Source of the DNA: Candidatus Omnitrophota bacterium
GTDB taxonomy: Bacteria > Omnitrophota > Gorgyraeia > Zapsychrales > Fredricksoniimonadaceae
Length of the DNA: 64,000 nt
Direction of reading: 5' to 3'
Assembly (NCBI GenBank): GCA_044225175.1
Contig: JBGAJA010000004.1
Location: forward strand, 145,631 to 209,630
The notes under the pieces were generated by a model. That model was given only the letters and a program-made list of their open reading frames with translations, was not told the DNA's origin and ran no database searches. This document shows, piece after piece, positions 36,630 to 60,697 of the stretch. Made by a program: the position numbers and the translations under genes. How positions within the stretch are numbered: position 1 is the first letter of the stretch; each line of letters begins with the position of its first letter.

Positions 36630-36659
36630 TTTTGGATAACTTAATTTCCTGTTTCAATA

Positions 36660-36800
36660 AGCTGTTTAATCAGCTTACAGGAAAGCGGGGGACCCAAAAG
36701 GCCAATTGTGGCCTGGGGGCTAATGCTCAATACCTCACAAGGTAGGAGCAAGGACCACTCAATCCTAGCCCGACAGCTAACCTCGTCTGCTAATCAAATG
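36660..36800 (+). promoter_or_regulatory. c-di-AMP riboswitch (ydaO/kimA class) in the 5' leader of the KimA-like transporter
   Basis: The leader carries blocks that match my recollection of the B. subtilis ydaO leader: AAGCGGGGGACCCAA (cf. CACGGGGAGCCA); GGGGGCUAAUGC (cf. GGGGUGAAUC); AGGUAGGAGCAAGG (cf. AGGUAGGCGAAC); AGCCCGACAGCUAACCUCGUCUGC (cf. AGCCCGAAUCCGUCAGCUAACCUCGUAAGC). The downstream gene is the same family (KimA) that this riboswitch controls in Bacillus. Confidence 0.65.
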
Positions 36801-36811
36801 AGGGAAACTAT

Positions 36812-36841: not shown

Positions 36842-36862
36842 GCCTCAGGGAGGTAGTTGCGT

Positions 36863-42770: not shown

Positions 42771-44963
42771 TCAATTCAAGCTATTACGTCTCAATCTCAG
42801 GGCATTTCCTATCACGGAAACTGAGCTTACGCTCATGGCTGCCCCTGCGATCATAGGGCTTAGGAGGATTCCGATGAAGGGGTATAGGATTCCGGCGGCG
42901 ATGGGGACGCCTAGGATATTGTAGATAAAGGCGAAAAATAAATTTTGTTTGATATTGGTCATAACGGCTCTTGAGAGTTTTAGAGCTTTGACGATTCCAT
43001 TAAGATCGCCTTTGACTAAGGTGATTCCTGCACTTTCAATTGCCACATCTGTTCCTGTTCCCATAGCAACCCCTACATCCGCTTGCGCAAGTGCTGGGGC
43101 ATCATTAATGCCGTCGCCTGCCATTAACACAATTGCACCCTTCGCTTTAAATTCTTTAACAATCTCCTGTTTGGCTTGGGGTTCTAACCCGCCACGTACA
43201 TCATCGATGTTCAATTCCCTTGCAATAACCTCAGCGGTCTTTTGATTGTCCCCGGTTAGCATCACAACCTTGATTCCCATTTCATGAAGAGCCTTGATTG
43301 CTTCTGGCGTTGATTTCTTAATTGGATCTGAAATCCCAAGAATACCCATTACCTTTTGATCAGCGGCTAACCAAATCACCGTCTGTGCCTTCTCCTGCAA
43401 GCCTTCAGCTTTGATTCTTAAATCTTCTGGAATTCCAATCTTTTGATCTTCAATAAATTTCTTCTTGCCTACGATGATTGTTTGCCCGTTGATCCTGCCC
43501 TTGATGCCACCACCGGTGATTGATTCAAAATTCTCTACCTTCTGTAAATTGATGTTTCTTGTCTTTGCATAATCAATGAGCGCACGAGCTAGCGGATGTT
43601 CACTGCTTTGCTCAAGCGATGCAGCCATAAAAATGAGCTTGCCTTCATCTTCACCGAAATTTGAAATACACGCCGTTACCTTAGGTCTTCCTTCAGTCAA
43701 TGTTCCCGTTTTATCAGTAAGAACATACGTCACCTTCTGAGCTTTCTCAATCGCCTGTGCATTCTTAATCAAAATCCCTGCTTGCGCGCCACGGCCAACA
43801 CCAACCATGATCGACATGGGTGTAGCTAGCCCCAAGGCACATGGGCAGGCGATGATGAGAACAGCAATGGCATTCACAATCGCATACGCCAATCTTGGCT
43901 CTGGCCCGATAGATGACCAAACAAAAAATGTCAGAACAGAAATCAACATGACAATGGGAACAAAATAACCTGACACTTGATCTGCAAGCTTTTGAATAGG
44001 TGCTTGGCTGCGCTGAGCATCAGACACCATATGCACAATTTGAGACAGAAGAGTTTCTGCTCCCACCTTTTCTGTTTTCATCACAAAACTACCGGTTTGA
44101 TTGACGGTTGCCCCAATCACACGATCCCCCGCATATTTCTCAACAGGGATAGGTTCACCTGAAATCATAGATTCATCAATACTGCTATGCCCCTCTGTAA
44201 TAATCCCATCTAACGGAACTTTTTCTCCTGGACGAACACGAAGCAAATCTCCTTTTTGAACAAGCTCGATTGCCACTTCTTCTTCAACACCATTGACAAT
44301 ACGATGCGCATTCTTAGCCGCCAATCCCAACAGAGCTTTAATCGCTTCTCCTGTTTGAGCACGAGCCTTAGCTTCTAATAATTGCCCCAAAAGAATGAGT
44401 ACGGTAATCACCGCAGCAGCTTCAAAATATAGATCAATAGCGCCCATTTTCTTCAATGATTCAGGAAAGATGCCCGGCAGCAAGGTAGCAACCGTGCTGT
44501 AGCCGTAGGCTGCTCCTACACCAAGCGCTATCAAGGTGAACATATTTAAAGATTTATTAATGACTGATTTGTAACCCTTAACAAAAAATATGCCGCCTGC
44601 CCACAGAACAACAGGTGTGGCTAGAATCAATTGGATGATTGCTAATACGTCATGAGAGATGAATGATTGAAGATTGATTGCTGGAATCATATCAGCCACC
44701 ACTAACAACACCAGAGGTGTTGTTAGTGATAGGCCAATCCAAAACTTCAACGATAGAGAATCAATTTCATGTTTGTCGTCATTACTTTCAGCTGTTGGAC
44801 TCACAGGTTCCAGATGCATGCCGCATTTAGGGCAATCTCCCGGGTGATCCTGACGAATCTCTGGATGCATGGGGCAGGTATAGATAGCGCCTGCAGCTGC
44901 AACAGCTTTAACTTGAGGCTTTTCATGCCCATGCGAGCAGCACGAATGTTGATGTTCTTCCAT
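42771..44963 (-). CDS. copA: Cu(I)-translocating P1B-type ATPase with an N-terminal HMBD (CPMHP…CPxCGM) metal-binding domain
   Basis: It has TM CPC ([13 protein letters not shown]), DKTGTLT, a TGD hinge and GDGINDAP. The N-terminus has CCSHGHE and [26 protein letters not shown]. Confidence 0.9.
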
Positions 44964-44982
44964 GCTGAGCCTCCTTTAAAGA

Positions 44983-45426
44983 TTAATGATGTGCTGAGTG
45001 ATCAACAGTTGGCTTATCTGCTGCTGGAGCTTTATCATCGTCGTCATTATCCATATCAGGCTTACCCATTCCTTTGCTCATTTTTTGACACATGGCACAC
45101 ATCTTGCTTTCTTCTGCTTTAATTTCTACTTCCTTAACCAAATTAAGATTGGCATCATACTTAGACAATTTATGACCACTCAAAACGATAACACCACCAT
45201 CGTTGGAAGCAACCATAGAAGTCTTATTCATCATTGCATTCATCATCATACCCTTGGACATCATGCCACCTTTGTCACCCATCATGCCCATCATCCCACC
45301 TTTACCCTCCATCATTCCTGCCTTGTCTTGCATCATTTCCTTACCCTTATCCTCCATCTGAGCTAATGCGAATCCCGAAACAATTAAAACAACAACTGCT
45401 GCCATTATTGCGATACTGTTTTTCAT
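44983..45426 (-). CDS. periplasmic methionine-rich Cu-binding protein
   Basis: It has a signal peptide (ALA|QM), Met-rich MxxM/GMM repeats, then CAMC and a C-terminal HSAHH. Confidence 0.55.
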   Translation of the reverse strand: MKNSIAIMAAVVVLIVSGFALAQMEDKGKEMMQDKAGMMEGKGGMMGMMGDKGGMMSKGMMMNAMMNKTSMVASNDGGVIVLSGHKLSKYDANLNLVKEVEIKAEESKMCAMCQKMSKGMGKPDMDNDDDDKAPAADKPTVDHSAHH

Positions 45427-45480
45427 AGACTTCTCCTTTTTTGTTACTAGAATTTATCGATATAACCCTGCAACTAACTT

Positions 45481-45497
45481 ATTTTGTACGGGCGGGG
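45481..45497. other. GC-rich hairpin GGCGGGG-taa-CCCCGCC between the YHS and Met-rich genes
   Basis: It is a perfect 7-bp GC stem with a U-tract only on the plus strand. It may be an antisense terminator or an RNA processing site. Confidence 0.3.
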
Positions 45498-45514
45498 TAA
45501 CCCCGCCCCTACGA

Positions 45515-45793
45515 TTATTTTTTCTCTGCTGCTACTTCATCTTCAGCGATCTTGCTGAATTTCTCTGGGCTATTCTTGAAATCTTTCTTACACATGGGGC
45601 AGCAAAGATTATAAATCTTGCCATTATATTCATACTGCACACCCTTGCCCATTGTACCAACCTTCTCCCCACTGACTGGGCATAATTTATTTCCTACCTC
45701 AACTAACTTCGCTGCCTGTGGCGCTGACTGAGCGAAAGATACCCCTGATACCAATAAAAGAACCCCTAGTGTTAATGCTGTGATCGTTTTCAT
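45515..45793 (-). CDS. periplasmic YHS-domain protein
   Basis: It has a signal peptide (SFA|QS) and CPVSGEKV…YEYNGKIYNLCCPMCKKDFKNSPEKF. Confidence 0.6.
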   Translation of the reverse strand: MKTITALTLGVLLLVSGVSFAQSAPQAAKLVEVGNKLCPVSGEKVGTMGKGVQYEYNGKIYNLCCPMCKKDFKNSPEKFSKIAEDEVAAEKK

Positions 45794-45809
45794 TTTGATT
45801 CTCCTTTGT

Positions 45810-48800
45810 TTATTGTTTTCCGCCCGAGGCGGATCCGCCTAAGGCGGAAGATTTCCACATAAAATAAATCGCTGGATAAACCAGAAGCTCCAGGATAAAT
45901 GAGGTTCCAAGCCCTCCTACCATCGGCGCAGCAATACGTTTCATGACGTCCGAACCTGAACCTACAGCAAACATGATAGGCAAAAGCCCAATCATCGCAG
46001 CCATCACCGTCATCATCTTAGGACGAATACGACGAACAGCACCGTGAAGAATTGCTTCTCTTAAGTCTTCCTTGTTGTTCATCTTGCCCTTTGCTACAGC
46101 ATCATTATACGCCATATCCAGGAACAATAACATTAAGACGCCTGTCTCAGCATCTAAGCCCATGAGCGCAATCATTCCCACCCACACAGCAATCGATACA
46201 TTGTATCCAAGTGCCCACAAGAACCAGACAGCACCAATCAATGAGAATGGTACCGCTAAAAGCACGATCGATGTTTTAACAATTGAACGCGTACTGAAAT
46301 ACAAGAGCAAGGCGATTAGAAACAACGTCAAAGGAAGAACAATCTTCAATCGATCCTGCACCCTTAACATATTTTCATACTGACCGCTAAACAATAAACT
46401 GTAGCCTTGAGGTGTCTTATAGTTAGTGCTGATAGCTTCCTTGGCATGCTTCACATAGGAACCAATATCAACACCTGCTACATCGACGTAGACATAGCCG
46501 GCCAGCATTCCATTTTCATTACGAAGCATGGCTGGACCTGTGCGAAGCACTAGATCAGCAACTTGCCCTAAAGCTACCTGCGCCCCAGAAGGCGTTGCAA
46601 TCAATACATGCTCCAACTGAGATAAATCACTTCGAAGTTCTCTTGGGTAACGAACGCTCACTCCAAAGCGTGCACGCCCCTCCACCGTTGTTGTGATATT
46701 CTCTCCTCCAACGGCAGCTAAGATGGTTTCTTGAGCTTGCGCGACTGTTAATCCATAACGAGCTAATGCCTCTCGCTTTAGATCAAAATCAACATAGTAT
46801 CCGCCTGCTGTTCGTTCAGCGAAGACACTGCGGGTTCCTGGAATATCCTTAAGAATCCCTTCAAGATGCAAACCTATCTCTTCGATTCTTTTGATATCTT
46901 CTCCCAAAATCTTAATTCCAACGGGAGTTCTGATTCCCGTTGAAAGCATATCAATACGATTCTTAATGGGCATGGTCCACGCATTGGTTGTTCCTGGAAT
47001 CTTGAGCGCCTCATCCATCTCTTGAATCAAAGCCTCATGGGAAATGGTCTTACCATTAATCTTTCGCCATTGAGAGGCAGGTTTAAGCATCACTGTTGTT
47101 TCCATCATAGAAAACGGCGCTGGGTCTGTGGAAGACTCCATTCGTCCAGCCTTTCCCCAGACACGCTCAACTTCAGGAAAACTTTTTAAGATATGATCCT
47201 GTGTCTGTAGCAGCTTGGTTGCCTCAGTCACTGAGATACCAGGCATGGTCGTTGGCATATAGAGGATATCCCCTTCCCACAATGGCGGCATAAACTCACT
47301 ACCTAATTTCAGATACACCGGCACCGTCGTAGCCACCAGTAAGATAGCCGTGATAATGGTTGCCTTGCTATGCTTTAAGACAAACTTGCAAGCAGGTTCA
47401 TAAACGGCAAACATCAGTTTACTGACCGGATGTTTCTCTTCTGGGTAATATTTACCAACCAGCAAAGTGTTAACGATCTTTGACTTATAGGGCTTAACCC
47501 TTAAGAACAACATGCGAAGCGCAGGGTTAAAGGTGACCACCAAAAACGCAGCGAAGATCATGGCAAACGTCTTCGACCATGCGAGTGGTTTAAACAAACG
47601 TCCTTCTTGATCGATCAGAGTAAAGATTGGCAAGAATGAAACAGCGATCACCAGAAGTGAGAAGAATACCGAAGGGCCAACTTCTTTAAGCGCGCGGATA
47701 CACACTGCCTGATAATTTTCCTTCCTCCCTGAACTCTCCCATTCCTCCAAACGCTTATAGACGTTCTCCATCTGAACGATGGCGCCATCGACCAAAACCC
47801 CAATAGAAATAGCAATCCCTGCTAGCGACATAATATTGGATGTTAATTTCAAACCAAGCAATGGAATGAATGCTAGAAGCACAGCAATTGGAATCGTAAT
47901 GATTGGAATAAAGGCTGATGGGAAATGCCAGAGAAACAACATGATAACTAGAGAAACAACAATCATTTCTTCAATCAGCTGTTTCTTGAGATGATTGATG
48001 GAGTTTAGAATCAGCTGTGAACGATCATAGGTGGTGACAACCTCGACCCCTTCAGGAAGTGATGATTTAATCTCCTGGAGTCTTGCCTTCACGCGATCAA
48101 TCACCTGCAGGGCATTTTCACCAAATCGCATAACGATTGTGCCGCCTACCGCATCGCCCTGGCCATCTAGATCAGCAATTCCACGGCGAATATCTGGCCC
48201 TGTGGCCACATGGGCCACAGCCTTAAGCAAGACCGGCGTCCCATTCACTGCAGTACCAACAACTGTATTCTCAATGTCTTCAATGGACTTTAAATACCCG
48301 TGAGAGCGCACCATGTATTCAGCACCGCTAAATTCAAGCAACCTTCCACCAGCTTCCTGATTGCTTTCACGTACGGCATTGATCACATTGTTAATGGGAA
48401 GCTTAAAACCTATCAATTTCTGAGGATCAACCGTGATCTGATACTGCTTGGTAAATCCTCCAATGGAAGCAACCTCAGCTACCCCTGGCACACTTTGCAA
48501 TTGATACTTCAAATTCCAATCTTGAAATGTACGAAGCTCCTCTAAGGAATGCTTGCCTGAATGATCAACCAATGCATATTGATACACCCACCCTACTCCT
48601 GTGGCATCGGGCCCCAGCTCAGTCCTCACCCCCTCAGGCAGACGAGCTGTAATTTTGTTTAAATATTCCAGCACCCGGCTTCTGGCCCAATACATATCTG
48701 TGCCATCTTTAAAAATGACATAAACATAGGAAAATCCAAAGTCAGAGAACCCGCGAATCGCTTTTACTCCTGGGGCGCCTAGTAATGATGAAACAATCGG

Positions 48801-49022
48801 ATAGGTTACCTGATCTTCAATCACATCCGGACTTCTGTCCCAACGGGAATAGATGATCACCTGTGTATCTGAAAGGTCAGGAATGGCATCCAAGGAAATG
48901 TTCTTCATGGACCAAATGGCCCACACTAATGAACAGGCGACCAAAAGAATAACCAAGAATTTATTAGCCACTGAAAAGCCAATCAACTTCTCAATCCAAG
49001 TTTCTCTAACTTGATTATTCAT
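45810..49022 (-). CDS. cusA: heavy-metal efflux RND transporter, CusA/CzcA family
   Basis: The 1070-aa product has 12 TM helices and two large periplasmic loops. The N-terminus is typical HME-RND (IEKLIGFSVANKFLVILLVAC). It overlaps cusB by 8 nt. Confidence 0.9.
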   Translation of the reverse strand: MNNQVRETWIEKLIGFSVANKFLVILLVACSLVWAIWSMKNISLDAIPDLSDTQVIIYSRWDRSPDVIEDQVTYPIVSSLLGAPGVKAIRGFSDFGFSYVYVIFKDGTDMYWARSRVLEYLNKITARLPEGVRTELGPDATGVGWVYQYALVDHSGKHSLEELRTFQDWNLKYQLQSVPGVAEVASIGGFTKQYQITVDPQKLIGFKLPINNVINAVRESNQEAGGRLLEFSGAEYMVRSHGYLKSIEDIENTVVGTAVNGTPVLLKAVAHVATGPDIRRGIADLDGQGDAVGGTIVMRFGENALQVIDRVKARLQEIKSSLPEGVEVVTTYDRSQLILNSINHLKKQLIEEMIVVSLVIMLFLWHFPSAFIPIITIPIAVLLAFIPLLGLKLTSNIMSLAGIAISIGVLVDGAIVQMENVYKRLEEWESSGRKENYQAVCIRALKEVGPSVFFSLLVIAVSFLPIFTLIDQEGRLFKPLAWSKTFAMIFAAFLVVTFNPALRMLFLRVKPYKSKIVNTLLVGKYYPEEKHPVSKLMFAVYEPACKFVLKHSKATIITAILLVATTVPVYLKLGSEFMPPLWEGDILYMPTTMPGISVTEATKLLQTQDHILKSFPEVERVWGKAGRMESSTDPAPFSMMETTVMLKPASQWRKINGKTISHEALIQEMDEALKIPGTTNAWTMPIKNRIDMLSTGIRTPVGIKILGEDIKRIEEIGLHLEGILKDIPGTRSVFAERTAGGYYVDFDLKREALARYGLTVAQAQETILAAVGGENITTTVEGRARFGVSVRYPRELRSDLSQLEHVLIATPSGAQVALGQVADLVLRTGPAMLRNENGMLAGYVYVDVAGVDIGSYVKHAKEAISTNYKTPQGYSLLFSGQYENMLRVQDRLKIVLPLTLFLIALLLYFSTRSIVKTSIVLLAVPFSLIGAVWFLWALGYNVSIAVWVGMIALMGLDAETGVLMLLFLDMAYNDAVAKGKMNNKEDLREAILHGAVRRIRPKMMTVMAAMIGLLPIMFAVGSGSDVMKRIAAPMVGGLGTSFILELLVYPAIYFMWKSSALGGSASGGKQ

Positions 49023-49841
49023 GTGAAGTCTCCCCAGCTAACGCTGCTTGAAGACGGCTTTCGGAATCTAGTAAGAAGTTGGCTCCTGTAGCTATTTTCT
49101 GTCCTTCTTGTAAGCCTTCTTTAATTTGAATCCAGCCTTGGGATTCTAAGCCAGTCTTGACCTGTTGAGGATGAAAGTTATTGTCTTTTTCTACTATAAA
49201 AACAACAGCCCTTGTTCCTGTCATCATGACGCTATCTCGAGGGACAACTAGTGTGGGTGATGACTCAACAGGAATGGTGACATGGACATACATATTACCT
49301 CGTAATTTCATGTCTACCCCCCTGACATCAATACGGACATTGACCGTACGTGTTATAGAATCCACCTTCCAATCTATATAACGAACAATGCCGTGAATCG
49401 ATTCTCCAAAAGTTGGAATCTCAATAGTGGCCTTTTGCCCCAACTGAATCAATGGTATATCGATCTCAGAAATTTGAGCATAAATGGGAAATGTTCTAGC
49501 TGATTTGGAAGCTTGAAAATTAGGATCCACAATTCCAGGAGCACGGATTGTTTTAACTAAGGCTTTCTTTTCTACCATCAGAGATTTTAATCCCATCAAT
49601 TGTTGCTTCGGCTCTTTGATTGTCACCGGCACATAACCATCAACCTTCTGAGCCAATTGATCTCGATGGGCTGCCTCTGACTTTTCTTCCTTCTTAACTA
49701 AATTCATCCCACAAATAGGACATTGCCCTGGCCTATCTGAAGTGTAAGTCGGATGCATGGGACAATACCAAATTTCTTTGGCATATACAGATACGCTTGT
49801 GAAGATTACGGCTAATACAACTAATATGATTTCTTTCATAA
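49015..49841 (-). CDS. cusB: efflux RND periplasmic adaptor (CusB-like) with an N-terminal HMBD (CPMHP…CPICGM)
   Basis: The true start is MKEIILVVLAVIFTSVSVYA (ATG at 49839-49841). It has YCPMHPTYTSDRPGQCPICGMNL, then a membrane-fusion beta-barrel/lipoyl fold. The track's 52-aa extension is rejected. Confidence 0.8.
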
Positions 49842-49930
49842 TGATCCCCTTATATTGATGATTTGAACTTCCCCTAACCCCCACTTTGAAAAAAGAGGGG
49901 TTAGGAGAGTTCCTAATATTTTTATTGAAA

Positions 49931-50302
49931 TTAAATACGAATGGAACGGGCTTTGATGTACAGCGGAATAAGCGTATAAGGCCCAGGAGGACCATTGATG
50001 TAGAGACTTTTTAAAGTCAAACGATTTGCAGGTAAAAGTTGAATTAAAGCAAATGCAATAAAAGCTAATCCAATAGGCCCTATCCAATGAAAGATTTGAT
50101 TCTTAGCCAATTCCATTGGACTTGCTTTACTAAAACAGCATTCTTTGATGGGGGAAGCTTTTCCATCTTTAGAGGCGCAATGAGAACATATTGGTTTAGA
50201 GGCTTGAATTTGGTTCTTAATTACACAACAGCACAATACATTGGCGATGATAAAAATCAAGCCGGTTAGAACCAAAAATGAGTTTTTTAAAGGTTGCTTC
50301 AT
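49931..50302 (-). CDS. small 2-TM membrane protein with a Cys-rich loop (CCC…CSHC…ECC), putative metal-binding
   Basis: It reads MKQPLKNSFLVLTGLIFIIANVLCCCVIKNQIQASKPICSHCASKDGKASPIKECCF, then a second TM helix. It lies directly upstream of cusBA on the same strand. Confidence 0.35.
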   Translation of the reverse strand: MKQPLKNSFLVLTGLIFIIANVLCCCVIKNQIQASKPICSHCASKDGKASPIKECCFSKASPMELAKNQIFHWIGPIGLAFIAFALIQLLPANRLTLKSLYINGPPGPYTLIPLYIKARSIRI

Positions 50303-50349: not shown

Positions 50350-52947
50350 TTAGAAATTCGCATCATTCGAATAATTATCATAATCCGATGCTCTACACAT
50401 TCCATCACTATCACCTGAAGACATATCCGTACACATACCCCCCTCTTTCACTGGAGGGCCTGGATCATAGATACAAGTCAAGCATTTCCAATCAGTCCAA
50501 TGGTCACCAGCCCATGTATTCTCAGGGCATGCATTCATACAATGATTATCATCCACAACTGGATCATAATCACATTTTTCACACTTGGCTTGTTGACAAA
50601 AATCAGCCCTAGTCCCATCTAAAGTTCTACAGCAAGAGTATTTTTCAGGATCTTGGGCAAAATATTGTATACAGTGATTATCATGGCATTCATATATATA
50701 ACAAGGATCCGCAGGGCAATCGGTAGCGACATTACATGTATCTCCAGTATCAGACCCCGTTCCTGTACCTGTTCCTGATCCAGTGGCACTTCCTGTAGAG
50801 GAACCTGTGGAACTACCGGTGGATGAACCTGTCGAACTTCCCGTCGAAGAACCAGTTGAGCTTCCGGTCGATGATCCAGTTGAACTTCCCGTAGATGAGC
50901 CTGTTGAGCTTCCCGTAGATGATCCAGTTGAACTTCCGGTAGATGATCCTGTTGAACTTCCCGTAGATGAGCCTGTTGAACTTCCGGTAGATGATCCAGT
51001 TGAACTTCCCGTAGATGAGCCTGTTGAACTTCCGGTAGATGATCCAGTTGAACTTCCCGTAGATGAGCCTGTTGAGCTTCCAGTAGATGAGCCAGTTGAA
51101 CTTCCCGTAGATGAGCCTGTTGAGCTTCCGGTCGATGATCCAGTTGAACTTCCCGTAGATGAGCCTGTTGAGCTTCCTGTAGATGATCCAGTTGAGCTTC
51201 CAGTAGATGAGCCAGTTGAACTTCCCGTAGATGAGCCTGTTGAGCTTCCTGTAGATGATCCAGTTGAGCTTCCCGTAGATGATCCAGTTGAACTTCCGGT
51301 AGATGATCCAGTCGAGCTTCCCGTAGATGATCCAGTCGAACTTCCAGTCGATGATCCAGTTGAACTTCCGGTAGATGATCCAGTTGAACTTCCGGTAGAT
51401 GATCCAGTTGAACTTCCGGTAGATGATCCAGTTGAACTTCCAGTCGAGGAACCAGTCGAACTTCCAGTCGATGATCCTGTCGCAGTTCCTGAACCACAAG
51501 GTGTGCATTGATGAAGAACACAGCAGAAGTCATCTGCACAGTCTCCTTCATCTATACAAGATTCCTCACCATCACCAGTTGAGCCGCTGTCAGACATATT
51601 TCCCGTGGAACTACCGGTAGATGATCCTGTCGAACTTCCCGTCGAGGAACCAGTTGAGCTGCCTGTAGAGGAACCCGTCGAACTTCCCGTTGAAGAGCCG
51701 GTTGAGCTACCCGTAGATGATCCGGTAGAACTTCCTGTCGAAGATCCAGTTGAACTTCCGGTGGATGATCCTGTCGAACTACCAGTCGATGATCCTGTTG
51801 AACTACCAGTCGATGATCCTGTCGAACTTCCCGTCGAGGAACCAGTTGAACTACCTGTAGAAGAACCGGTTGAACTTCCTGTTGAGGAACCGGTTGAGCT
51901 TCCAGTGGCTGAACCGTCTGAATCATCCGTAGAACTGCCCGTTGATGATCCCGTTGAATCCCCCGTAGACGTACCCGTTGATGATCCCGTCGAACTTCCC
52001 GTCGAGGAACCAGTTGAACTGCCAGTAGATGAACCAGTTGAACTTCCCGTAGATGATCCTGTTGAGCTACCCGTAGATGATCCCGTTGAACTTCCCGTGG
52101 ATGATCCGGTTGAACTTCCCGTAGATGATCCCGTTGAACTTCCCGTAGATGAACCTGTTGAACTTCCTGTGGGTGAACCTGTTGAACTTCCTGTGGAGGA
52201 ACCTGTTGATGTACCAGTCGAACTTCCCGTAGATGATCCCGTTGAACTTCCGGTCGATGATCCTGTTGAACTTCCGGTCGATGATCCTGTCGAACTACCT
52301 GTCGATGAACCTGTTGAGCTACCCGTAGATGATCCCGTTGAACTTCCAGTTGATGAACCAGTCGAACTTCCCGTCGAGGAACCAGTCGAACTTCCAGTTC
52401 CTGTTCCAGTACCGGTTCCAGTTCCCCCTCCACTATCAGCTGGCATTCCACACGTATAAAGAAGTGAGGTAAACGATCCTGGGCAAGTCGCACCAGGCAC
52501 CCCTCCTCGACAATAAGGATTGGGCGGGATAGCAGCATCATTCGTATAATAGATTGGGATATTTCCAGGATTAAGCGGTTTATCCAAATCCACAATCATG
52601 GTAAAGCCTCCACCACCCTGTCTTTGAGCAAAACAAACATTGCTATTGGAACTGTTGGTTGGACAGCATCTATAAACCAAACCATTATTTGGCGTAATAT
52701 TTAAATTAAGGCTCTTGTTAATGCCCACAACATCTGCCCCACCTCCGGAAAAAGGATAATATTTTCCATGGGCCTGTTTATAGTTAAGCTGTGAGTTTTT
52801 AATGGCAATCAGATTACGCAGGGCATCTGTAGAAACGGATCGTTCATAAGTTTTGGTGAAATTGACTAAAGCGGAAGAAGCTAAAATACCTAAAACCAAC
52901 ATTGAAACAAGGACTTCAATTGTAGTAAAGGAAGGTGATTTTCTCAT
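50350..52947 (-). CDS. giant type IV pilin/pseudopilin-like protein with two (SSTG)n mucin-like repeat blocks and Cys-knot modules (865 aa)
   Basis: The N-terminus is MRKSPS|FTTIEVLVSMLVLGILASSALVNF, a prepilin-type methylation motif with Glu at +5. An ~140-aa Cys-containing head follows (YRCCPTNSS, VCFAQRQGGGG, PYCRGG…CPG…YTCGMPA). Next come (SSTG)n, the CIDEGDCADDFCCVLHQCTPCGSG knot, a second (SSTG)n and a Cys-rich C-terminal domain. Confidence 0.6.
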   Translation of the reverse strand: MRKSPSFTTIEVLVSMLVLGILASSALVNFTKTYERSVSTDALRNLIAIKNSQLNYKQAHGKYYPFSGGGADVVGINKSLNLNITPNNGLVYRCCPTNSSNSNVCFAQRQGGGGFTMIVDLDKPLNPGNIPIYYTNDAAIPPNPYCRGGVPGATCPGSFTSLLYTCGMPADSGGGTGTGTGTGTGSSTGSSTGSSTGSSTGSSTGSSTGSSTGSSTGSSTGSSTGSSTGSSTGSSTGSSTGSSTGTSTGSSTGSSTGSPTGSSTGSSTGSSTGSSTGSSTGSSTGSSTGSSTGSSTGSSTGSSTGSSTGSSTGSSTGSSTGSSTGTSTGDSTGSSTGSSTDDSDGSATGSSTGSSTGSSTGSSTGSSTGSSTGSSTGSSTGSSTGSSTGSSTGSSTGSSTGSSTGSSTGSSTGSSTGSSTGSSTGSSTGSSTGSSTGSSTGSSTGSSTGNMSDSGSTGDGEESCIDEGDCADDFCCVLHQCTPCGSGTATGSSTGSSTGSSTGSSTGSSTGSSTGSSTGSSTGSSTGSSTGSSTGSSTGSSTGSSTGSSTGSSTGSSTGSSTGSSTGSSTGSSTGSSTGSSTGSSTGSSTGSSTGSSTGSSTGSSTGSSTGSSTGSSTGSSTGSSTGSSTGSSTGSSTGSSTGSSTGSSTGSSTGSSTGSSTGSSTGSSTGSSTGSSTGSSTGSSTGSSTGSSTGSSTGSSTGSSTGSSTGSSTGSSTGSATGSGTGTGTGSDTGDTCNVATDCPADPCYIYECHDNHCIQYFAQDPEKYSCCRTLDGTRADFCQQAKCEKCDYDPVVDDNHCMNACPENTWAGDHWTDWKCLTCIYDPGPPVKEGGMCTDMSSGDSDGMCRASDYDNYSNDANF
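50765..51490. repeat. imperfect 24-nt tandem repeat array encoding (SSTG)n, block 2 of the 865-aa gene
   Basis: The unit is agtagatgagcctgttgaacttcc / ggtagatgatccagttgaacttcc, alternating about 30 times. Confidence 0.8.
51600..52428. repeat. imperfect 12/24-nt tandem repeat array encoding (SSTG)n, block 1 of the 865-aa gene
   Basis: The plus strand reads gatgatcc[ag]gttgaacttcc[cg]gta… with periodicity. Several frames on both strands stay open across it. Confidence 0.8.
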
Positions 52948-52955
52948 GTTTTAAA

Positions 52956-55316
52956 TTATAAACAATAGTTACAACCACTTACACTTGGACAAGAGGGAGC
53001 AGGATCATCCCCCCCTTCAATTAACGTACAGTCACCCCAACCAGCTGCACCAGAGCAACATTTATACACACCTTCATCAACATCAATACACGTAGTTACA
53101 GGTAAATCGCAATTAGGGTCTGCAGTATGTACACAAGATGTTATACAGCATAACTCTGATATGTGAGGAATAATAGCAAAAAAGGCACAATCTCCGGATC
53201 CGCTTCCAGTCCCAGTCCCCGTTCCCGAACCACTTCCGGTCCCTGTACCTGTTCCCGTACCACTACCTGATCCTGTGCCAGTGCCTGTCCCATCTCCTAC
53301 GTTTTGGCACTTGCCTGCATTGCAATACTGAGTTGCTGCATCACAACAGAAATCTGACGTGGTCGCACAACTGTTCGTAGAGCAGCCTCCACAATTATTT
53401 ATGTCTGTATCAGGATTAATATACATACACGTCTGATCAGGCTGACAACAGCCACCTGAACATTCATAACCAGGGTCTCCACAAACTGCTGGATCATCAC
53501 CGGTCCCCGTTCCTGAGCCTGTTCCCGTCCCGCTTCCTCCATCCCAAGGATCATTTTTACAGTGTCCTGTAATAGCCATATTTTTATTAATTTCAATAAA
53601 TATCAAAGGACTTGTGCTTACGTAATCCCCCGTCCATGTAACGAACCTAGCCCATGGTTTAGCCAGGACTGCAATAATATCTCCAAAATTATAGGATGAC
53701 TGTCCATGACTACTATTGCCATTGACAGCTATAACAGAAGCAAAATCACAATTATCATTATTGACAATCAAAGAATAATTGCTTCCAGTAGCAGTACCTG
53801 TCGAACTCCCCGTCGAGGAACCAGTCGAACTGCCTGTAGATGAGCCCGTTGAACTGCCTGTCGATGATCCTGTTGAACTGCCAGTAGATGATCCTGTTGA
53901 GCTTCCGGTAGATGAACCTGTTGAGCTTCCCGTAGATGACCCAGTTGAACTACCTGTCGATGATCCTGTTGAACTGCCAGTAGATGATCCTGTTGAGCTT
54001 CCGGTAGATGACCCAGTTGAACTACCTGTCGATGATCCTGTCGAACTTCCTGTAGAAGATCCGGTGGCGCTGCCTGTGGATGAACCTGTACCTGATCCGC
54101 AAACAGGGGTACAGAAATGCATGTTACAACAATAATCGTCGTCACAATCATCATCGTCTTCGCAAAACAAATTAGTGTTTGTGGAACCACTTTCATTGTG
54201 ATTTCCAGTTGCTGATCCTGTAGAACTTCCAGTCGAAGACCCTGTTGAACTGCCTGTAGATGACCCGGTTGAGCTTCCCGTAGATGACCCAGTTGAACTG
54301 CCTGTAGATGACCCGGTTGAGCTTCCCGTAGATGACCCAGTTGAACTGCCTGTAGATGACCCGGTTGAGCTTCCCGTAGATGACCCAGTCGAACTGCCTG
54401 TAGATGACCCGGTTGAGCTTCCCGTAGATGACCCAGTTGAACTGCCTGTAGATGACCCGGTTGAGCTTCCCGTAGATGACCCGGTTGAGCTTCCCGTAGA
54501 TGACCCGGTTGAGCTCCCCGTAGATGACCCAGTCGAACTGCCTGTAGATGACCCAGTTGAACTGCCTGTAGATGACCCAGTTGAACTGCCTGTAGATGAC
54601 CCGGTTGAGCTTCCCGTAGATGACCCAGTTGAACTGCCTGTAGATGAGCCGGTGGAACTTCCAGTGGATGAGCCTGTAGAACTTCCGGTTGATGACCCTG
54701 TCGAACTACCCGTCGAAGATCCTGTTGAACTGCCTGTGGATGAACCAGTCGAACTACCTGTAGATGACCCGGTTGAACTTCCCGTTCCAGTTCCAGTCCC
54801 TGTTCCACCCCCTCCAGCAGGCATTCCACAAGTATAGACAGAGGTAATATAATTCCCAGGACAAACCGCCCCACTCTGTCCCCCTCGGCAATAGGGATTA
54901 TGAGTCCCATCAAAATACACAGGCACATTTCCAGGATTAAGAGGAGCATCCAGGTCCAAAATCATACTAAAAGCCCCAACTCCTTGCCTCTGGGCGTAAC
55001 ACACATTATTATTAGCACTGTTCGAGGGACAACATTTATATTTTAATCCATTACTGGGTGTAATGTTTAATCCAAGGTTTTTATTAATATCCGCGATACT
55101 CGCATCTGCTGATCCAGAAGAAGAATAATATTTTCCATGAGACTGCAAATAGCTAAGCTGAGCGCTCTTAATGGCCATTAAATTATGCATAGCATCACGG
55201 CCAACAGTTTTTTCAAATGTTCTTAGGAAGTTAGGAAGGGCAATAGAGACCAAAATCCCTAAAATAAGGATTGTTATGAGGATTTCAATGATGGTAAAAG
55301 AAGGTGTTCTTTTCAT
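52956..55316 (-). CDS. giant type IV pilin/pseudopilin-like protein with (SSTG)n repeats, a Cys knot and an NNCGxC-type Cys-rich C-terminus (786 aa)
   Basis: The N-terminus is MKRTPS|FTIIEILITILILGILVSIALPNF. The head has YKCCPSNS, VCYAQRQG and PYCRGG…CPG…YTCGMPA, paralogous to the downstream gene. It continues with (SSTG)n, CEDDDDCDDDYCCNMHFCTPVCGSG, (SSTG)n and a ~110-aa domain. The tail is CGDPGYECSGGCCQPDQTCMYINPDTDINNCGGCSTNSC…GKCQ, then a Gly/Thr linker and a final Cys-rich segment. Confidence 0.6.
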   Translation of the reverse strand: MKRTPSFTIIEILITILILGILVSIALPNFLRTFEKTVGRDAMHNLMAIKSAQLSYLQSHGKYYSSSGSADASIADINKNLGLNITPSNGLKYKCCPSNSANNNVCYAQRQGVGAFSMILDLDAPLNPGNVPVYFDGTHNPYCRGGQSGAVCPGNYITSVYTCGMPAGGGGTGTGTGTGSSTGSSTGSSTGSSTGSSTGSSTGSSTGSSTGSSTGSSTGSSTGSSTGSSTGSSTGSSTGSSTGSSTGSSTGSSTGSSTGSSTGSSTGSSTGSSTGSSTGSSTGSSTGSSTGSSTGSSTGSSTGSSTGSSTGSSTGSSTGSSTGSSTGSSTGSSTGSSTGSSTGSSTGSSTGSSTGSSTGSSTGSSTGSATGNHNESGSTNTNLFCEDDDDCDDDYCCNMHFCTPVCGSGTGSSTGSATGSSTGSSTGSSTGSSTGSSTGSSTGSSTGSSTGSSTGSSTGSSTGSSTGSSTGSSTGSSTGSSTGSSTGSSTGSSTGSSTGSSTGSSTGTATGSNYSLIVNNDNCDFASVIAVNGNSSHGQSSYNFGDIIAVLAKPWARFVTWTGDYVSTSPLIFIEINKNMAITGHCKNDPWDGGSGTGTGSGTGTGDDPAVCGDPGYECSGGCCQPDQTCMYINPDTDINNCGGCSTNSCATTSDFCCDAATQYCNAGKCQNVGDGTGTGTGSGSGTGTGTGTGSGSGTGTGTGSGSGDCAFFAIIPHISELCCITSCVHTADPNCDLPVTTCIDVDEGVYKCCSGAAGWGDCTLIEGGDDPAPSCPSVSGCNYCL
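53785..54097. repeat. 24-nt tandem repeat array encoding (SSTG)n, block 2 of the 786-aa gene
   Basis: It has the same periodicity and about 13 units. Confidence 0.75.
54205..54815. repeat. 24-nt tandem repeat array encoding (SSTG)n, block 1 of the 786-aa gene
   Basis: The unit is cgtagatgacccagttgaactgcc / tgtagatgacccggttgagcttcc. Codon choice differs from the repeats of the neighbouring gene. Confidence 0.8.
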
Positions 55317-55437
55317 AATTCTTATTTAAAGTATACCCTAAATTTTCAAATTAGACATATAAAATACTGCCTTGCTTGGGGATTTAATTTTCTTTTCTTG
55401 TTTTTTGAAATTAAGTTTTTATAATTAAAATCACTCT

Positions 55438-56589
55438 ATGTTTAATGAGAATGATCCCCTTAATTTTTCCCAAAAATCCCCTGAAAATACAGGCCATGGC
55501 CTTCCCAATATCCTTGTTCCTAAGCAAATTACAACCGCAACTCCTTTAGAAGAAATCCTGGCTTTTGCACGAAAAGAAAATGCCAGCGATGTCCATATAG
55601 TCCCTAATAACCCCGTTATTTTTAGAAAATTTGGCCATCTTGTCAATATGACAACTGATGTCCTGTCAGACAAACAAATCCGTTATATGTTAATTAAATG
55701 CCTGCCTACCAAAGTTATCGAAACATTTGATACAACAGGCGACATAGAATATGTTCATACAATTACAGGATACGGTCGTTTTCGCATGACCATTGTAAAA
55801 CAGCGCTTAGGATGGGAGTTAACGGCCCGTTTAATCGTATTGGAGATTCCTAGATTCGCCGCTTCTGGAATGCCCACCCCTTGTACAAGCTTAATCAAAT
55901 GGAGCCAAGGTATTGTATTAATTACAGGACCTGCAGGGGCTGGTAAAACTACGACCTTGGCAACATTGGTTGAAATGATTAACCAGCGTCGCTATGACCA
56001 TATTATTACCCTTGAACAACCCATTGAAATTCTCTATGAACCTGAAAATTGTCAGATTTCCCAAAGGGAGATTTTTCTTCATACGGCCTCACAGGAAAGC
56101 GCCTTGCGCTCTGCCCTACGCGAAGATCCTGATGTCATTGTCGTTGGGGAATTGAAAGACTTAGTTACCACTCAACTTGCTATTATGGCTGCAGAAACCG
56201 GCCACCTAGTATTAGCTACCATGAATACGGTCAATGCTGTCCAAACTATTTCGAGACTTGTAGAGTCCTTCCCTTCCGACGAACAATCAGTTATTCGTAA
56301 TTTAGTATCGGAATCACTGCGAGGGGTTATCTGCCAGCAGTTAGTCCCTAAGAAAAATGGCACCGGTGTCGTTTGTGCTTATGAAATATTATTTAATACA
56401 GTTTCCGTGGCCAATCATATTCGGAAAGGTACAATTGGACAAATTGAGAATGTTATCATAACTAGCAAGGGACTAGGGATGTCTTTGATGAGCCACTCTC
56501 TGCAAAATCTTGTTGCAACGGGAGTTATTGCCGCAGATGAAGCTCGAGAGAGAATCGCTGAAATTGAATCACAAACTAATAAGAATTAA
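55438..56589 (+). CDS. PilT-family type IV pilus retraction-type ATPase, divergent paralog with a degenerate His-box
   Basis: It has a Walker A motif GPAGAGKTTTLA and an Asp-box ITLEQPIEILYE. The Walker B is DVIVVGELKD. The His-box is GHLVLATMNT, where the second His is replaced by Asn. It has AIRNLIRE-like VANHIRKG and an N-terminal ~35-aa extension. Confidence 0.75.
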   Translation: MFNENDPLNFSQKSPENTGHGLPNILVPKQITTATPLEEILAFARKENASDVHIVPNNPVIFRKFGHLVNMTTDVLSDKQIRYMLIKCLPTKVIETFDTTGDIEYVHTITGYGRFRMTIVKQRLGWELTARLIVLEIPRFAASGMPTPCTSLIKWSQGIVLITGPAGAGKTTTLATLVEMINQRRYDHIITLEQPIEILYEPENCQISQREIFLHTASQESALRSALREDPDVIVVGELKDLVTTQLAIMAAETGHLVLATMNTVNAVQTISRLVESFPSDEQSVIRNLVSESLRGVICQQLVPKKNGTGVVCAYEILFNTVSVANHIRKGTIGQIENVIITSKGLGMSLMSHSLQNLVATGVIAADEARERIAEIESQTNKN

Positions 56590-56591
56590 TT

Positions 56592-57635
56592 ATGGCTGGA
56601 ATAGACTACTTTTTTAATATTTTAATTAATAAAAATGGCTCGGATTTGCACCTGGAAGAGGGACAAAAGCCCAAAATCCGTCTTCACGGTCAAATGACTG
56701 AAATCGACAATCAGATTCTAACTAGACAGAATATGATTGAATTGATTGCTAATATTGTCACTAGGAAAGACTGGAGTCATTTTGAAAATAAAGGTGACCT
56801 GGACTTTGCTTATGCTTTTGGAAACCAAGCCCGTTTCAGAGGAAATTTTTATCGACATGTGAAAGGTCTAGGAGCAGTTTTCCGCCTAGTCCCTTCTCGC
56901 ATATTTTCCATGGAAGAACTTGGTCTTCCTGAATGTGTAATTCAATTTCCAAAATGGCGCTCAGGCTTAATTCTTATTACAGGATCAACCGGAAGTGGTA
57001 AATCCACGACATTAGCAACAATCATTGATTATATTAATCAAAATTATGCTTATAAAATCGTAACTATTGAAGATCCTATTGAATTTACTCATCCTAGAAA
57101 AAAATCCATTATATCTCATCGTGAGGTAGGCCATGATACAGCATCCTTCGCCAGTGGTTTACGTGCTGCCATTAAAAGCGATGCAAATATCATTATGGTT
57201 GGTGAAATGCGTGACATAGAAACCATGGAACTAGCATTGAATGCCAGTGAAATGGGTATTTTAGTATTTAGCACTCTGCATACGAGTTCAGCGACTAAGA
57301 CTATTGATCGCATTCTGGATACTTTTCCTAATAATCGAAAAAATCAAATCCGATCCATCTTGGCTAATAATCTTAAAGCAATTCTCACTCAGCAGTTAAT
57401 TCCAAGCATCGACTTAAGCTGCCGATATGCTGCGTTTGAGATTCTCCTTAGAACTCAAGGACTAGCTCATATTATCCAGTCTGGGGAGACCTTCCGTTTA
57501 AACAGCGAAATTCAAACCAATCGCTTTCAAGGAATGGTCCTTATGGATGACTCATTATTAGATTTAGTTCGATCTGGAAAGATCAGCAAAGAAATGGCTC
57601 ATTTAAGAGCAGTTGATAAACAGAAATTTATGTGA
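56592..57635 (+). CDS. pilT: twitching-motility ATPase PilT
   Basis: It has [22 protein letters not shown] and [17 protein letters not shown]. The His-box is [10 protein letters not shown], and the AIRNLIRE equivalent is LAHIIQSGE. The 347-aa length is typical. It starts 3 nt after the upstream paralog. Confidence 0.85.
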
Positions 57636-59251: not shown

Positions 59252-59629
59252 TTAGGAGGATTTCTTAGGAGAATTAATGTGCTTATTGATTGCTGCTAAC
59301 AATATTTCCGGCTTGAAAGGTTTAACAATATATTCCTTAACGCCTTCTACTTTAAAAATTTCAGCCATTCCTTCTTTTGAAGTTAAAACAATGATGGGTA
59401 TAGAAGAACCTTGAGGGACTTTTTTTAATTCAAAAACAAATGTATACCCATTCATTTTTGGCATTTGCACATCTAATACAATCAAATCGGGCGATTGTTT
59501 CTTTATTTCATCTATGCCTTCTTGGCCATCAACAGCTACATGGACTTCATAATCTTGGGATTCTAGAAATGGTTTAACAACTTTTATCAACGTTGGGTCA
59601 TCATCAATCACTAAAATTTTCTTAGACAT
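59252..59629 (-). CDS. single-domain response regulator (CheY-like)
   Basis: The 125-aa product has ILVIDDDP…[14 protein letters not shown]…LTSK. Confidence 0.75.
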
Positions 59630-59649
59630 AATAAACTCTCCTTGATCTA

Positions 59650-60309
59650 TTATTCGTCTTCAGAGACCTTAGGCAAAGGACTCATCAGCATTTCAACAAC
59701 CATTCTCTTCTTGTCATCAATCTCAAAACTAATTTCAAATTTATCAGTCTGATCTTTACTATATTCCACCCCATCTAATACCGAATTGATAGCCGTTCTA
59801 AAATGAGACATTTCTAAATCAGCGTAACCTAAGCGTGCTAATTCTTTTTTGAAATATCCTGCAATTAAATTAGATATCGCTCCGATCCCATCTAATACCT
59901 CATCATCATCGTCGTAATCAATATAAGGATATTTAAAAAGCCTGAGCATTTCCGGCACAAAAGTTCTTTCAATGTAAACAATGATCAAACCGATTGGCTC
60001 ATTATTCTTTAAAGCAGCATTGTCTTTATAATAATGAATGACTGATAGGAAGGTTGTGGTATTAAATTTCTCCATCGCATCAATGCGCATGCGATTGACA
60101 AATTGAATGATAGCCCGTTTTTCAATGGTTGGTTCTGAAGAAAACTTTTGCTCAGATTTTTCATAAAAAACTTTTTTAACAGCAGCAGCTAAAGCAAGGG
60201 CCATTGTAAAAAGTGGTTCACTATAATCCCCCCTGACCTTTGGCCGATTGCTTAAGTTCTCATGGGCAATTTGTCTAAATTGTGGAAGTTCGGGAACAGG
60301 TTGTGCCAT
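59650..60309 (-). CDS. hypothetical protein flanked by two CheY-like genes, possibly a CheX/CheC-like phosphatase
   Basis: The 219-aa product has the segment DGIGAISNLIAGYF, which weakly resembles the CheC/CheX E-x2-N-x3-G active-site motif. Support is otherwise limited to gene context. Confidence 0.3.
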   Translation of the reverse strand: MAQPVPELPQFRQIAHENLSNRPKVRGDYSEPLFTMALALAAAVKKVFYEKSEQKFSSEPTIEKRAIIQFVNRMRIDAMEKFNTTTFLSVIHYYKDNAALKNNEPIGLIIVYIERTFVPEMLRLFKYPYIDYDDDDEVLDGIGAISNLIAGYFKKELARLGYADLEMSHFRTAINSVLDGVEYSKDQTDKFEISFEIDDKKRMVVEMLMSPLPKVSEDE

Positions 60310-60319
60310 TAATAAATGA

Positions 60320-60697
60320 TTACTTTAAAAAAGGTCTAACTGCTTGAATTAATTCTTCAGCCTTATAAGGTTTAACAATATAACCAGCTAAAGCAGGATT
60401 AATGTCTTTAGCTAATTTTCTATTTTCTTCTGAACCTGAAGCTGTAACCATAATGATGGGAATGTTTGACAAGACAGGAATTTTCATCATCCCAGCCATT
60501 AATTCAATGCCCGTCATTTTAGGCATTTGCCAGTCTAGCAATACGAGACTGATATCTTGATAATTACTGGCAAGAATTTCAAGAGCCTGTTCACCATCTT
60601 CGGCTTGCAGTATCTCTTGATTAACCTCCGACTTAACTAAAAGACGGATCAAAAGCTTTCGATCTAGGGTTGAATCATCGACAATTAAAATTTTCAT
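60320..60697 (-). CDS. single-domain response regulator (CheY-like)
   Basis: The 125-aa product has ILIVDDS…LVLLDWQMPKMTG…VTAS. Confidence 0.75.
   Translation of the reverse strand: MKILIVDDSTLDRKLLIRLLVKSEVNQEILQAEDGEQALEILASNYQDISLVLLDWQMPKMTGIELMAGMMKIPVLSNIPIIMVTASGSEENRKLAKDINPALAGYIVKPYKAEELIQAVRPFLK

Follow-up and report, generated by a model that had tools for sequence, protein, structure and literature searches.

Long Ser-Ser-Thr-Gly repeat arrays of an Omnitrophota contig as probable stalks of two tandem modular type IV pilins

In the current work, a 64,000-nucleotide (nt) stretch of the Candidatus Omnitrophota contig JBGAJA010000004.1 (referred to as the window, to which all coordinates apply) was analysed with respect to four tandem repeat arrays located in two adjacent genes, here named A and B. 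With a probability of roughly 0.6, these arrays are considered to be the coding sequence of long Ser-Ser-Thr-Gly (SSTG) stalks inside two tandem paralogous modular type IV pilins; the pilin identity of both genes was absent from an earlier note on this DNA, in which the arrays had been described. Alignment with relatives showed that each protein possesses a complete small pilin module at its N-terminus, and comparison of the repeat units showed that the SSTG peptide is under purifying selection while two of the four arrays are saturated at synonymous sites. A gap of 8 nt separates the stop codon of B from the start of A, and the two genes are probably co-transcribed. The products have a common layout, consisting of a pilin head, a (TG)n segment, a first array, an acidic six-cysteine knot, a second array and a Cys-rich C-terminal payload. 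Ser, Thr and Gly together account for 69% of the residues of A and 58% of those of B, the SSTG repeats total 520 amino acids (aa) in A and 304 aa in B (39-60% of each protein), and the number of cysteines is 28 in A and 38 in B. The genes and their modules are as follows (a slash marks the predicted cleavage site):

50350-52947, minus strand: gene A, 865 aa, a single open reading frame (ORF), tandem paralog of B
52429-52947, minus strand: pilin module of A, aa 1-173, with the class III signal MRKSPS/FTTIE
51601-52428, minus strand: array A1, residues 174-341 and 346-449 of A, (TG)n followed by 42+26 tetrapeptide units, synonymously saturated
51487-51600, minus strand: acidic six-Cys knot between the arrays of A, homologous to that of B
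50743-51486, minus strand: array A2, residues 488-735 of A, 62 units, the most homogeneous array, with a 48-nt higher-order repeat
50350-50742, minus strand: payload of A, a 130-aa Cys-rich C-terminal domain
52956-55316, minus strand: gene B, 786 aa, one uninterrupted ORF
54807-55316, minus strand: pilin module of B, aa 1-170, with the class III signal MKRTPS/FTIIE, a predicted alpha-1 helix, a four-stranded sheet and a C143-C152 loop
54204-54803, minus strand: array B1, residues 172-371 of B, 50 tetrapeptide units made up of a (TG)n lead-in and 47 SSTG
54096-54203, minus strand: acidic six-Cys knot between the arrays of B, C-x5-C-x4-CC-x4-C-x3-C
53784-54095, minus strand: array B2, residues 408-511 of B, 26 units, synonymously saturated
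52956-53783, minus strand: payload of B, comprising a beta-rich module of about 80 aa together with GT/GS linkers, a Cys motif resembling STIG1 (INPDTDINNCGGC...) and, at the C-terminus, a further Cys-rich module

The two heads are 61% identical to each other and carry the only class III (prepilin) N-termini encoded in the window. Their leaders (MKRTPS in B and MRKSPS in A) are short, basic and end in Ser, and are followed by the arrangement that characterizes such signals, namely Phe at position +1, Glu at position +5 and then a hydrophobic stretch (FTIIEILITILILGILVSIAL in B and FTTIEVLVSMLVLGILASSAL in A). When the heads were used as single sequences, matches were limited to the N-terminal helix (N_methyl, PilA_Myxo, GspG, ComGC and ComGE) and all of them fell below the curated cutoffs, the Pfam N_methyl score being 19.3 bits for a cutoff of 21.2 bits. 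An exhaustive HMMER search with a profile of the two paralogs retrieved 5781 proteins at an expectation value (E) of <=1e-3, of which 165 reached E<=1e-10; all of the best 150 among the latter are stand-alone pilins of 86-203 aa, devoid of a long C-terminal extension. The relatives are small but complete pilins with a conserved NPCC..G..CP motif at their end, and residues 1-153 of A and of B are equivalent to such a whole pilin; since the family alignment ends at this motif, A and B each represent a whole pilin with an extension. Seven relatives (P0008-P0014, pilins of 140-180 aa) align end to end with the two heads at 37-45% identity and have kept Glu5 and the Cys pair, and a further one (P0053) has a short Cys-rich tail. 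Glu+5 (E11), C143 and C152 are invariant in a 31-sequence family alignment, and the latter two residues are predicted to be bonded, thereby closing the C-terminal disulfide loop expected of a type IV pilin.

The family profile, when searched against the PDB, matched Myxococcus PilA (8tj2) at 3.6e-16, and also Thermus PilA4 (6xxd, positions 7-113) and Neisseria PilE (5kua, positions 7-111). An AlphaFold2 model of the B head, based on the 31-sequence alignment, reached a predicted local distance difference test score (pLDDT) of 86.6 and a predicted template modelling score (pTM) of 0.78, with a helix of 52 residues (9-60) and four strands, so that the long N-terminal helix and the antiparallel beta-sheet head of a type IV pilin are both present in the prediction. 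Other routes to relatives were unproductive: a word-indexed homology search returned nothing with the head alone, and with full-length B only low-complexity look-alikes and 0 pilins; a scan of genome contigs for the head yielded only an unrelated Acinetobacter N-terminal helix, and a metagenome scan for head relatives yielded none.

Prepilin peptidases strongly prefer Gly before the cleavage site. In the aligned relatives of A and B this position is occupied by G, A or S, and such variation within the pilin family (relatives P0008-P0157) may point to a lineage whose prepilin peptidase is more permissive. Two genomic contexts of relatives were recorded. The closest relatives of the heads form a tandem pair of 151 and 162 aa, both ending in NPCCQGGTAG..CP, in assembly GCA_027356455.1 (DAIEEH010000016.1, 5892-8520), and this pair sits in a five-gene pilin-like cluster, echoing the tandem arrangement of A and B. 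P0009 (182 aa, on a contig of ENA ERZ27296333), the nearest head relative, is a complete stand-alone gene; a 73-aa gene separates it from an upstream gene for a DsbD-type disulfide-reductase membrane protein, and this neighbour fits with disulfide-dependent folding of Cys-containing pilins.

The earlier note had placed four blocks of intragenic coding repeats on the minus strand, and both this assignment and, to within about 20 nt, the coordinates of the blocks agree with the present analysis. Tandem Repeats Finder reported periods of 24, 48, 72 and 96 nt over 50776-52395 and 53797-54782, with DNA matches of 74-84%, while peptide mismatch within the arrays is 0.010-0.065 per site; the description of the blocks as near-perfect 24-nt repeats therefore holds for the peptide and not for the DNA, which is near-identical only in the cores of A2 and B1. 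Similarly, SSTG is indeed encoded, being exact in most tetrapeptide units (approximately 200 Ser-Ser-Thr-Gly copies over the four arrays), although the unit is not SSTGSSTG as had been suggested: the peptide repeats every 4 aa, and the 24-nt period of the DNA results from a strict alternation of AGY and TCN at the first Ser codon, with 0 exceptions among the SSTG units of all four arrays. A codon-degenerate three-unit pattern produced 76 matches in the window and 0 in 100 shuffles. Array A1 is broken by a degenerate stretch at 51913-51924. All repeat units are multiples of 3 (12, 24 and 48 nt, and 6-nt units in the (TG)n segments), and slippage would therefore alter length and not frame, so that the gene cannot be switched off in this manner. 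The arrays thus possess neither of the properties of a phase-variable contingency locus, that is, a unit not divisible by 3 or a repeat in the promoter.

The codons used within the arrays retain information on their ancestry. Considering that a change between AGY and TCN takes two substitutions via a non-serine codon, the alternation can be regarded as the fossil of one ancestral unit, and its strict occurrence in every array implies that all four arrays descend from a common repeat, for which comparison of the units predicts the form AGY-TCN-ACN-GGN-TCN-TCN-ACN-GGN. In all four Ser slots the codons of gene A and gene B are indistinguishable (p = 0.2-0.9). At the wobble position of one Gly slot, GGG occurs in 21 of 33 cases in B as opposed to 0 of 55 in A (p = 5e-10), the second Gly slot also differs (p = 1e-5), and the Thr wobble differs weakly (p = 0.06 and 0.01). 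The proposal that the two genes use different codon sets is consequently correct for Gly, weakly so for Thr, and not for Ser. No 24-mers are common to the two genes.

Identity at four-fold sites was 0.40 among units within A1, 0.43 within B2, 0.61 within A2 and 0.54 within B1. Comparison of the two heads gave 0.35, and for A1 and B2 a saturation baseline of 0.38-0.43 is expected from slot-specific base frequencies. Units of A1 and B2 are thus at the saturation baseline and nearly as diverged as the paralogous heads, from which it follows that these are old arrays that are currently not homogenised. Since their synonymous sites are saturated yet their peptide is almost invariant, purifying selection must act on the SSTG sequence itself. 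A2 and B1, by comparison of units, contain cores of 48-nt higher-order repeats with 0.95-0.99 identity at lag 48 (in B1 this near-identical core is the 3' half) and exact repeats of up to 77 nt (A2) and 98 nt (B1), and these cores look like the only array parts that have been recently expanded and are prone to slippage. Earlier statements on the evolution of the arrays therefore apply in part. Independent expansion or concerted evolution in place of a shared repeat is compatible with the local expansion of the A2 and B1 cores, but not with one ancestral 24-nt unit or with the lack of homogenisation in A1 and B2. Likewise, a propensity for slipped-strand or recombinational length change would apply to the A2 and B1 cores, while A1 and B2, with longest exact repeats of 38-59 nt, would be poor slippage substrates.

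The knots located between the arrays are homologous (56% identity, E 2e-11), and no similarity was found between the payloads of A and B. Neither knots nor payloads gave a significant Pfam or NCBIfam family, a word-indexed homology search with the concatenated non-repeat modules was empty, as was a PDB sequence search with the B payload, and AlphaFold2 applied to the B payload in the absence of an alignment was uninformative (pLDDT 36). The STIG1-like motif of B weakly matches (E 0.004) a MXAN_6577-like protein encoded at 8105-9160 of the window (minus strand). The latter is a protein of 351 aa with a hydrophobic N-terminal helix (RTAFTSNQLLLLLGVFSIAIL), a GspG-like 'YVLYSKGFNGVVG..DIDD' segment and approximately five STIG1-like Cys-rich repeats, and it passes the NCBIfam MXAN_6577-like cutoff (112.8 versus 100 bits); it may represent a second pseudopilin-like carrier of Cys-rich modules in this genome.

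The genes directly upstream of gene B are divergently oriented and encode a pair of PilT/PilU-family proteins:

55317-55437, no strand: intergenic region separating the divergent genes B and pilT, presumed from the gene layout to contain promoters
55438-56589, plus strand: PilT/PilU-family retraction ATPase (TIGR01420, 339.6 bits, cutoff 319.1)
56592-57635, plus strand: second PilT/PilU-family retraction ATPase (TIGR01420, 389.6 bits, cutoff 319.1)

No strong sigma-70 consensus site was found inside the intergenic region 55317-55437. The presence in the window of porin and TamB genes indicates, as judged from gene content, that the organism is a diderm. Directly downstream of gene A lies a copper/silver resistance (efflux) cluster (42771-50302, minus strand), which comprises a CopA-type P-type ATPase (42771-44963), a large ORF (45810-49022) that is CusA-like by position, a CusB-like protein (49015-49995) that includes a heavy-metal-binding domain, and a Cys-rich membrane ORF of 123 aa without family (49931-50302). 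Near pilT/pilU and adjoining pckA, a CheX-like phosphatase gene is located between two single-domain response regulators (59252-60697, minus strand), a group that may be a small chemosensory module regulating motility. Elsewhere in the window, a cyclic di-AMP riboswitch (RF00379, 51.9 bits, E 3.7e-09; 36650-36807, plus strand) lies just upstream of a gene for a 654-aa amino-acid-permease-like protein (36857-38821).

According to the proposed mechanism, the prepilin would be cut after Ser-6 and the mature pilin module would join a type IV pilus, most likely at its tip or sparsely along the fibre, and the neighbouring PilT/PilU ATPases would retract the pilus carrying A and B. The SSTG stretches would act as disordered, hydrophilic and probably O-glycosylated mucin-like spacers, allowing the disulfide-bonded modules, as functional tips, to contact ligands at distances of tens of nanometres from the fibre. 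Stalk length could be tuned, without switching the genes off, if 24- or 48-nt units were gained or lost in frame within the A2 and B1 cores. A bolder version of this proposal, held tentatively and with more doubt than confidence, is that A and B belong to an undescribed class of tethered pilus adhesins, in which a retractile pilus would bear disulfide-knot modules on very long mucin-like SSTG lines of up to about 100 nm, the exact tetrapeptide would be strongly selected, for example as a glycosylation sequon, and the DNA would be kept synonymously scrambled, thereby stabilising a hyper-recombinogenic repeat.

Several observations weigh against the assignment of A and B as modular pilins. Position -1 of the predicted cleavage site holds Ser and not the canonical Gly (G, A or S in relatives), and Foldseek with the head model gave no significant pilin match, the only low-rmsd (root-mean-square deviation) matches being the pilins 4d40 and 6t8s. 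Among the ORFs scanned in the 64-kb window, genes for a prepilin peptidase, an assembly ATPase, the platform and a secretin were not seen, nor was a glycosyltransferase or O-oligosaccharyltransferase, so that glycosylation is suggested purely by composition. Passage of a tail of 600-700 aa through a secretin would have to be assumed, the SSTG linkers are far longer than the short linkers of known modular pilins, and a binding function is an assumption given that the payloads have neither a recognisable family nor a confident model. Finally, the copy numbers of the arrays are based on one assembly.

Four other explanations were weighed, of which the first concerns the frame that is translated. 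Three frames are free of stops in every array (the SSTG frame, the next minus-strand frame and one plus-strand frame) and a fourth has 2-5 stops per array, which means that the four to five open frames mentioned in the earlier note slightly overstated their number. The three ORFs that it named do exist (50783-51511, plus strand; 50619-51551, minus strand; 50813-51508, minus strand), and its opinion that ORFs in other frames are by-products was borne out, as the stop-free spans of the plus strand end <=90 nt from the array edges. Variation falls mainly on the third codon positions of the SSTG frame, which by itself cannot decide the question, since the plus-strand frame (PVELPVDD) has the same wobble positions. 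That another open frame, either plus-strand PVELPVDD or a shifted minus-strand one, encodes the real or an additional product would agree with the absence of stops from three frames and with the fair uniformity which the shared wobble positions confer on the plus frame (mismatch 0.03-0.26 per site). It is nevertheless exceedingly improbable, considering that openness is confined to the arrays, that the alternative frames lack homologous flanks, and that units compared in the shifted minus-strand frames are mismatched at 30-60% of sites. Moreover, the wobble of Ser TCN takes all four bases and the GAN slots of the plus frame mix Asp and Glu freely, as would be expected for the complement of a four-fold Ser wobble. 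In each of the five sub-arrays the SSTG frame shows less amino acid mismatch than any other, and this frame alone is continuous with the pilin head, which has homologs, with the conserved knot and with the downstream modules. A second explanation would be that the array lengths are assembly artefacts, collapsed or inflated, and that the copy numbers are unreliable. A Logan contig (SRR28480385), which is identical to the window at 900 of 900 positions, ends at 54618, 186 nt into B1, where the homogeneous core starts, and in the metagenome assembly GCA_020049755.1 the same junction is present at ~99% identity and the contig breaks at codon 53 of gene B, before the array. Short-read assembly does therefore fail here, as the warning about assembly collapse in the earlier note had anticipated. 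The near-identity of the A2 and B1 cores at the 48-nt lag (0.95-0.99) favours an artefact too, as does the fact that a protein collection containing neighbours from the same contig lacks the exact A and B products. On the other hand, both genes hold one frame through all arrays into conserved downstream modules, the longest exact repeat (98 nt) can be spanned with large k-mers or reads of 150 nt, A1 and B2 are sufficiently diverse for unique assembly, and an independent assembly confirms B1 over its first 186 nt, which leaves an artefact unlikely.

The remaining two explanations accept the reading frame and array lengths and concern the role of the proteins. If A and B were major, fibre-forming pilins, an SSTG tail would be present on every subunit and the filament would be 'hairy' and mucin-coated. 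Such a role would suit the best structural matches of the head family, which are to major pilins (Myxococcus PilA, Thermus PilA4 and Neisseria PilE), the relative in which a tandem pair heads a pilin cluster and is followed by minor-pilin-like genes, and the position of A and B, as the only class III signal proteins in the window, next to pilT/pilU. Yet the 600-700 aa tail of every subunit would need to pass through the secretin beside the fibre, described modular pilins are predicted to reside at the tip or at low abundance (PMC8179133), and all of the 150 closest relatives lack an extension, which suggests that it is the plain pilins that are structural; besides, the genome outside the window may encode a conventional major pilin. 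We therefore regard this role as improbable, and an equally low probability is given to the opposite case, in which A and B would not be pilus subunits at all and the N-terminus would serve as an uncleaved membrane anchor, or as a type II secretion-like pseudopilin stub, for envelope-anchored mucin-like glycoproteins. The Ser in place of Gly at -1, the N_methyl score below the curated Pfam cutoff and a window devoid of assembly machinery would all be accommodated by an anchor. Conversely, Phe+1, Glu+5 and the hydrophobic stretch are present, relatives with G, A or S at -1 constitute one family, the invariant Cys pair and the pilin-like fold are conserved, the genes are linked to pilT/pilU, and a disordered chain of ~600 aa with many disulfide modules is implausible inside the periplasm.

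With respect to modular pilins, the reading preferred here, the distribution of A and B in public data was also considered. A pilin head and SSTG arrays in one protein were not found elsewhere by exhaustive HMMER and word-indexed searches, and the degenerate three-unit DNA pattern gave 0 matches in 241 million JGI metagenome records and in viral contigs. The exact A and B products, together with seven alternative-frame ORFs, are absent from a collection of 15 billion proteins, and the two products are absent also from its 50% representatives (best representative match 9e-29). Six neighbour genes from the same NCBI contig, which is 214,223 bp long, are present in that collection, and the absence of the A and B products is compatible with a gene-calling or filtering problem. 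Since short-read assemblies break at the arrays, absence elsewhere may partly reflect under-sampling. A literature search on pilins with Ser/Thr-repeat or disordered tails found nothing relevant.

If the proposal is correct, the grafted-module principle of type IV pilins would here be taken to an extreme, where most of the subunit is a repetitive, probably glycosylated stalk and a retractable fibre gains a long flexible reach. The arrays also constitute a clean natural example of a uniform repetitive peptide specified by non-repetitive DNA, given the saturated synonymous sites and the AGY/TCN fossil, and this contrast separates selection on the peptide from homogenisation of the repeat, which bears on the genetic stability of long bacterial repeats. 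Considering that these genes break short-read assemblies and that their products are missing from the protein collection, comparable repeat-rich pilins may be systematically under-sampled in protein databases.

Modular pilins carry a grafted functional module, probably exposed at the tip, and are a known and widespread design (Raynaud et al. 2021, PMC8179133). Examples are PilB and PilC of Streptococcus sanguinis, CofB of enterotoxigenic Escherichia coli and TcpB of Vibrio cholerae, and multi-module pilins of up to 860 aa are on record (PMC8179133). A and B resemble these in having an N-terminal pilin module and additional C-terminal modules that would be presented by the filament, the defining combination of a pilin with at least one non-pilus C-terminal module being represented by the 600-700 aa that follow the heads and carry no database signature. 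They differ in the linker, which is short in modular pilins and in A and B consists of SSTG arrays of 104-272 aa, and in the modules, since known modular pilins mostly carry recognisable domains (vWA, lectin) whereas those of A and B are unclassified cysteine knots. The small pilins ending in NPCC..G..CP align end to end with the head but, among the best 150, have no long extension. With MXAN_6577-like/STIG1-like proteins, one of which is encoded by the same genome at 8105-9160, the likeness is limited to the D..NCGGC motif in one B module, which scores below every family threshold (pairwise E 0.004).

In serine-rich repeat (SRR) glycoprotein adhesins of Gram-positive bacteria, such as Fap1, GspB and SraP, the repeats are described as stalks with heavy O-glycosylation from which a binding region projects (PMC7661464, PMC7948813). 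A and B share with these adhesins very long Ser-rich repeats of short period, arranged as two blocks around a non-repeat region. SRR adhesins, however, are proteins of monoderms that use an accessory-Sec signal, are anchored to the cell wall through LPXTG and have a locus dedicated to their glycosylation and export, whereas A and B have a class III pilin signal, belong to a diderm, lack a C-terminal LPXTG and have no secA2/secY2/gtf locus in the window, which places them outside this group; their neighbours are pilT/pilU and copper-efflux genes and not an SRR-type locus. Yeast Flo/Als adhesins contain intragenic Ser/Thr-rich tandem repeats as extended spacers. In mucins such as MUC7, Ser/Thr-rich tandem repeats vary in copy number (PMC4997351). 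The likeness of A and B to eukaryotic mucins and yeast adhesins lies in coding tandem repeats rich in Ser/Thr that form extended spacers, and the difference in that the latter are eukaryotic proteins with other repeat units, A and B being known from one copy number. A and B are classified as modular pilins with an architecture not found elsewhere, analogous to SRR adhesins and mucins in function only.

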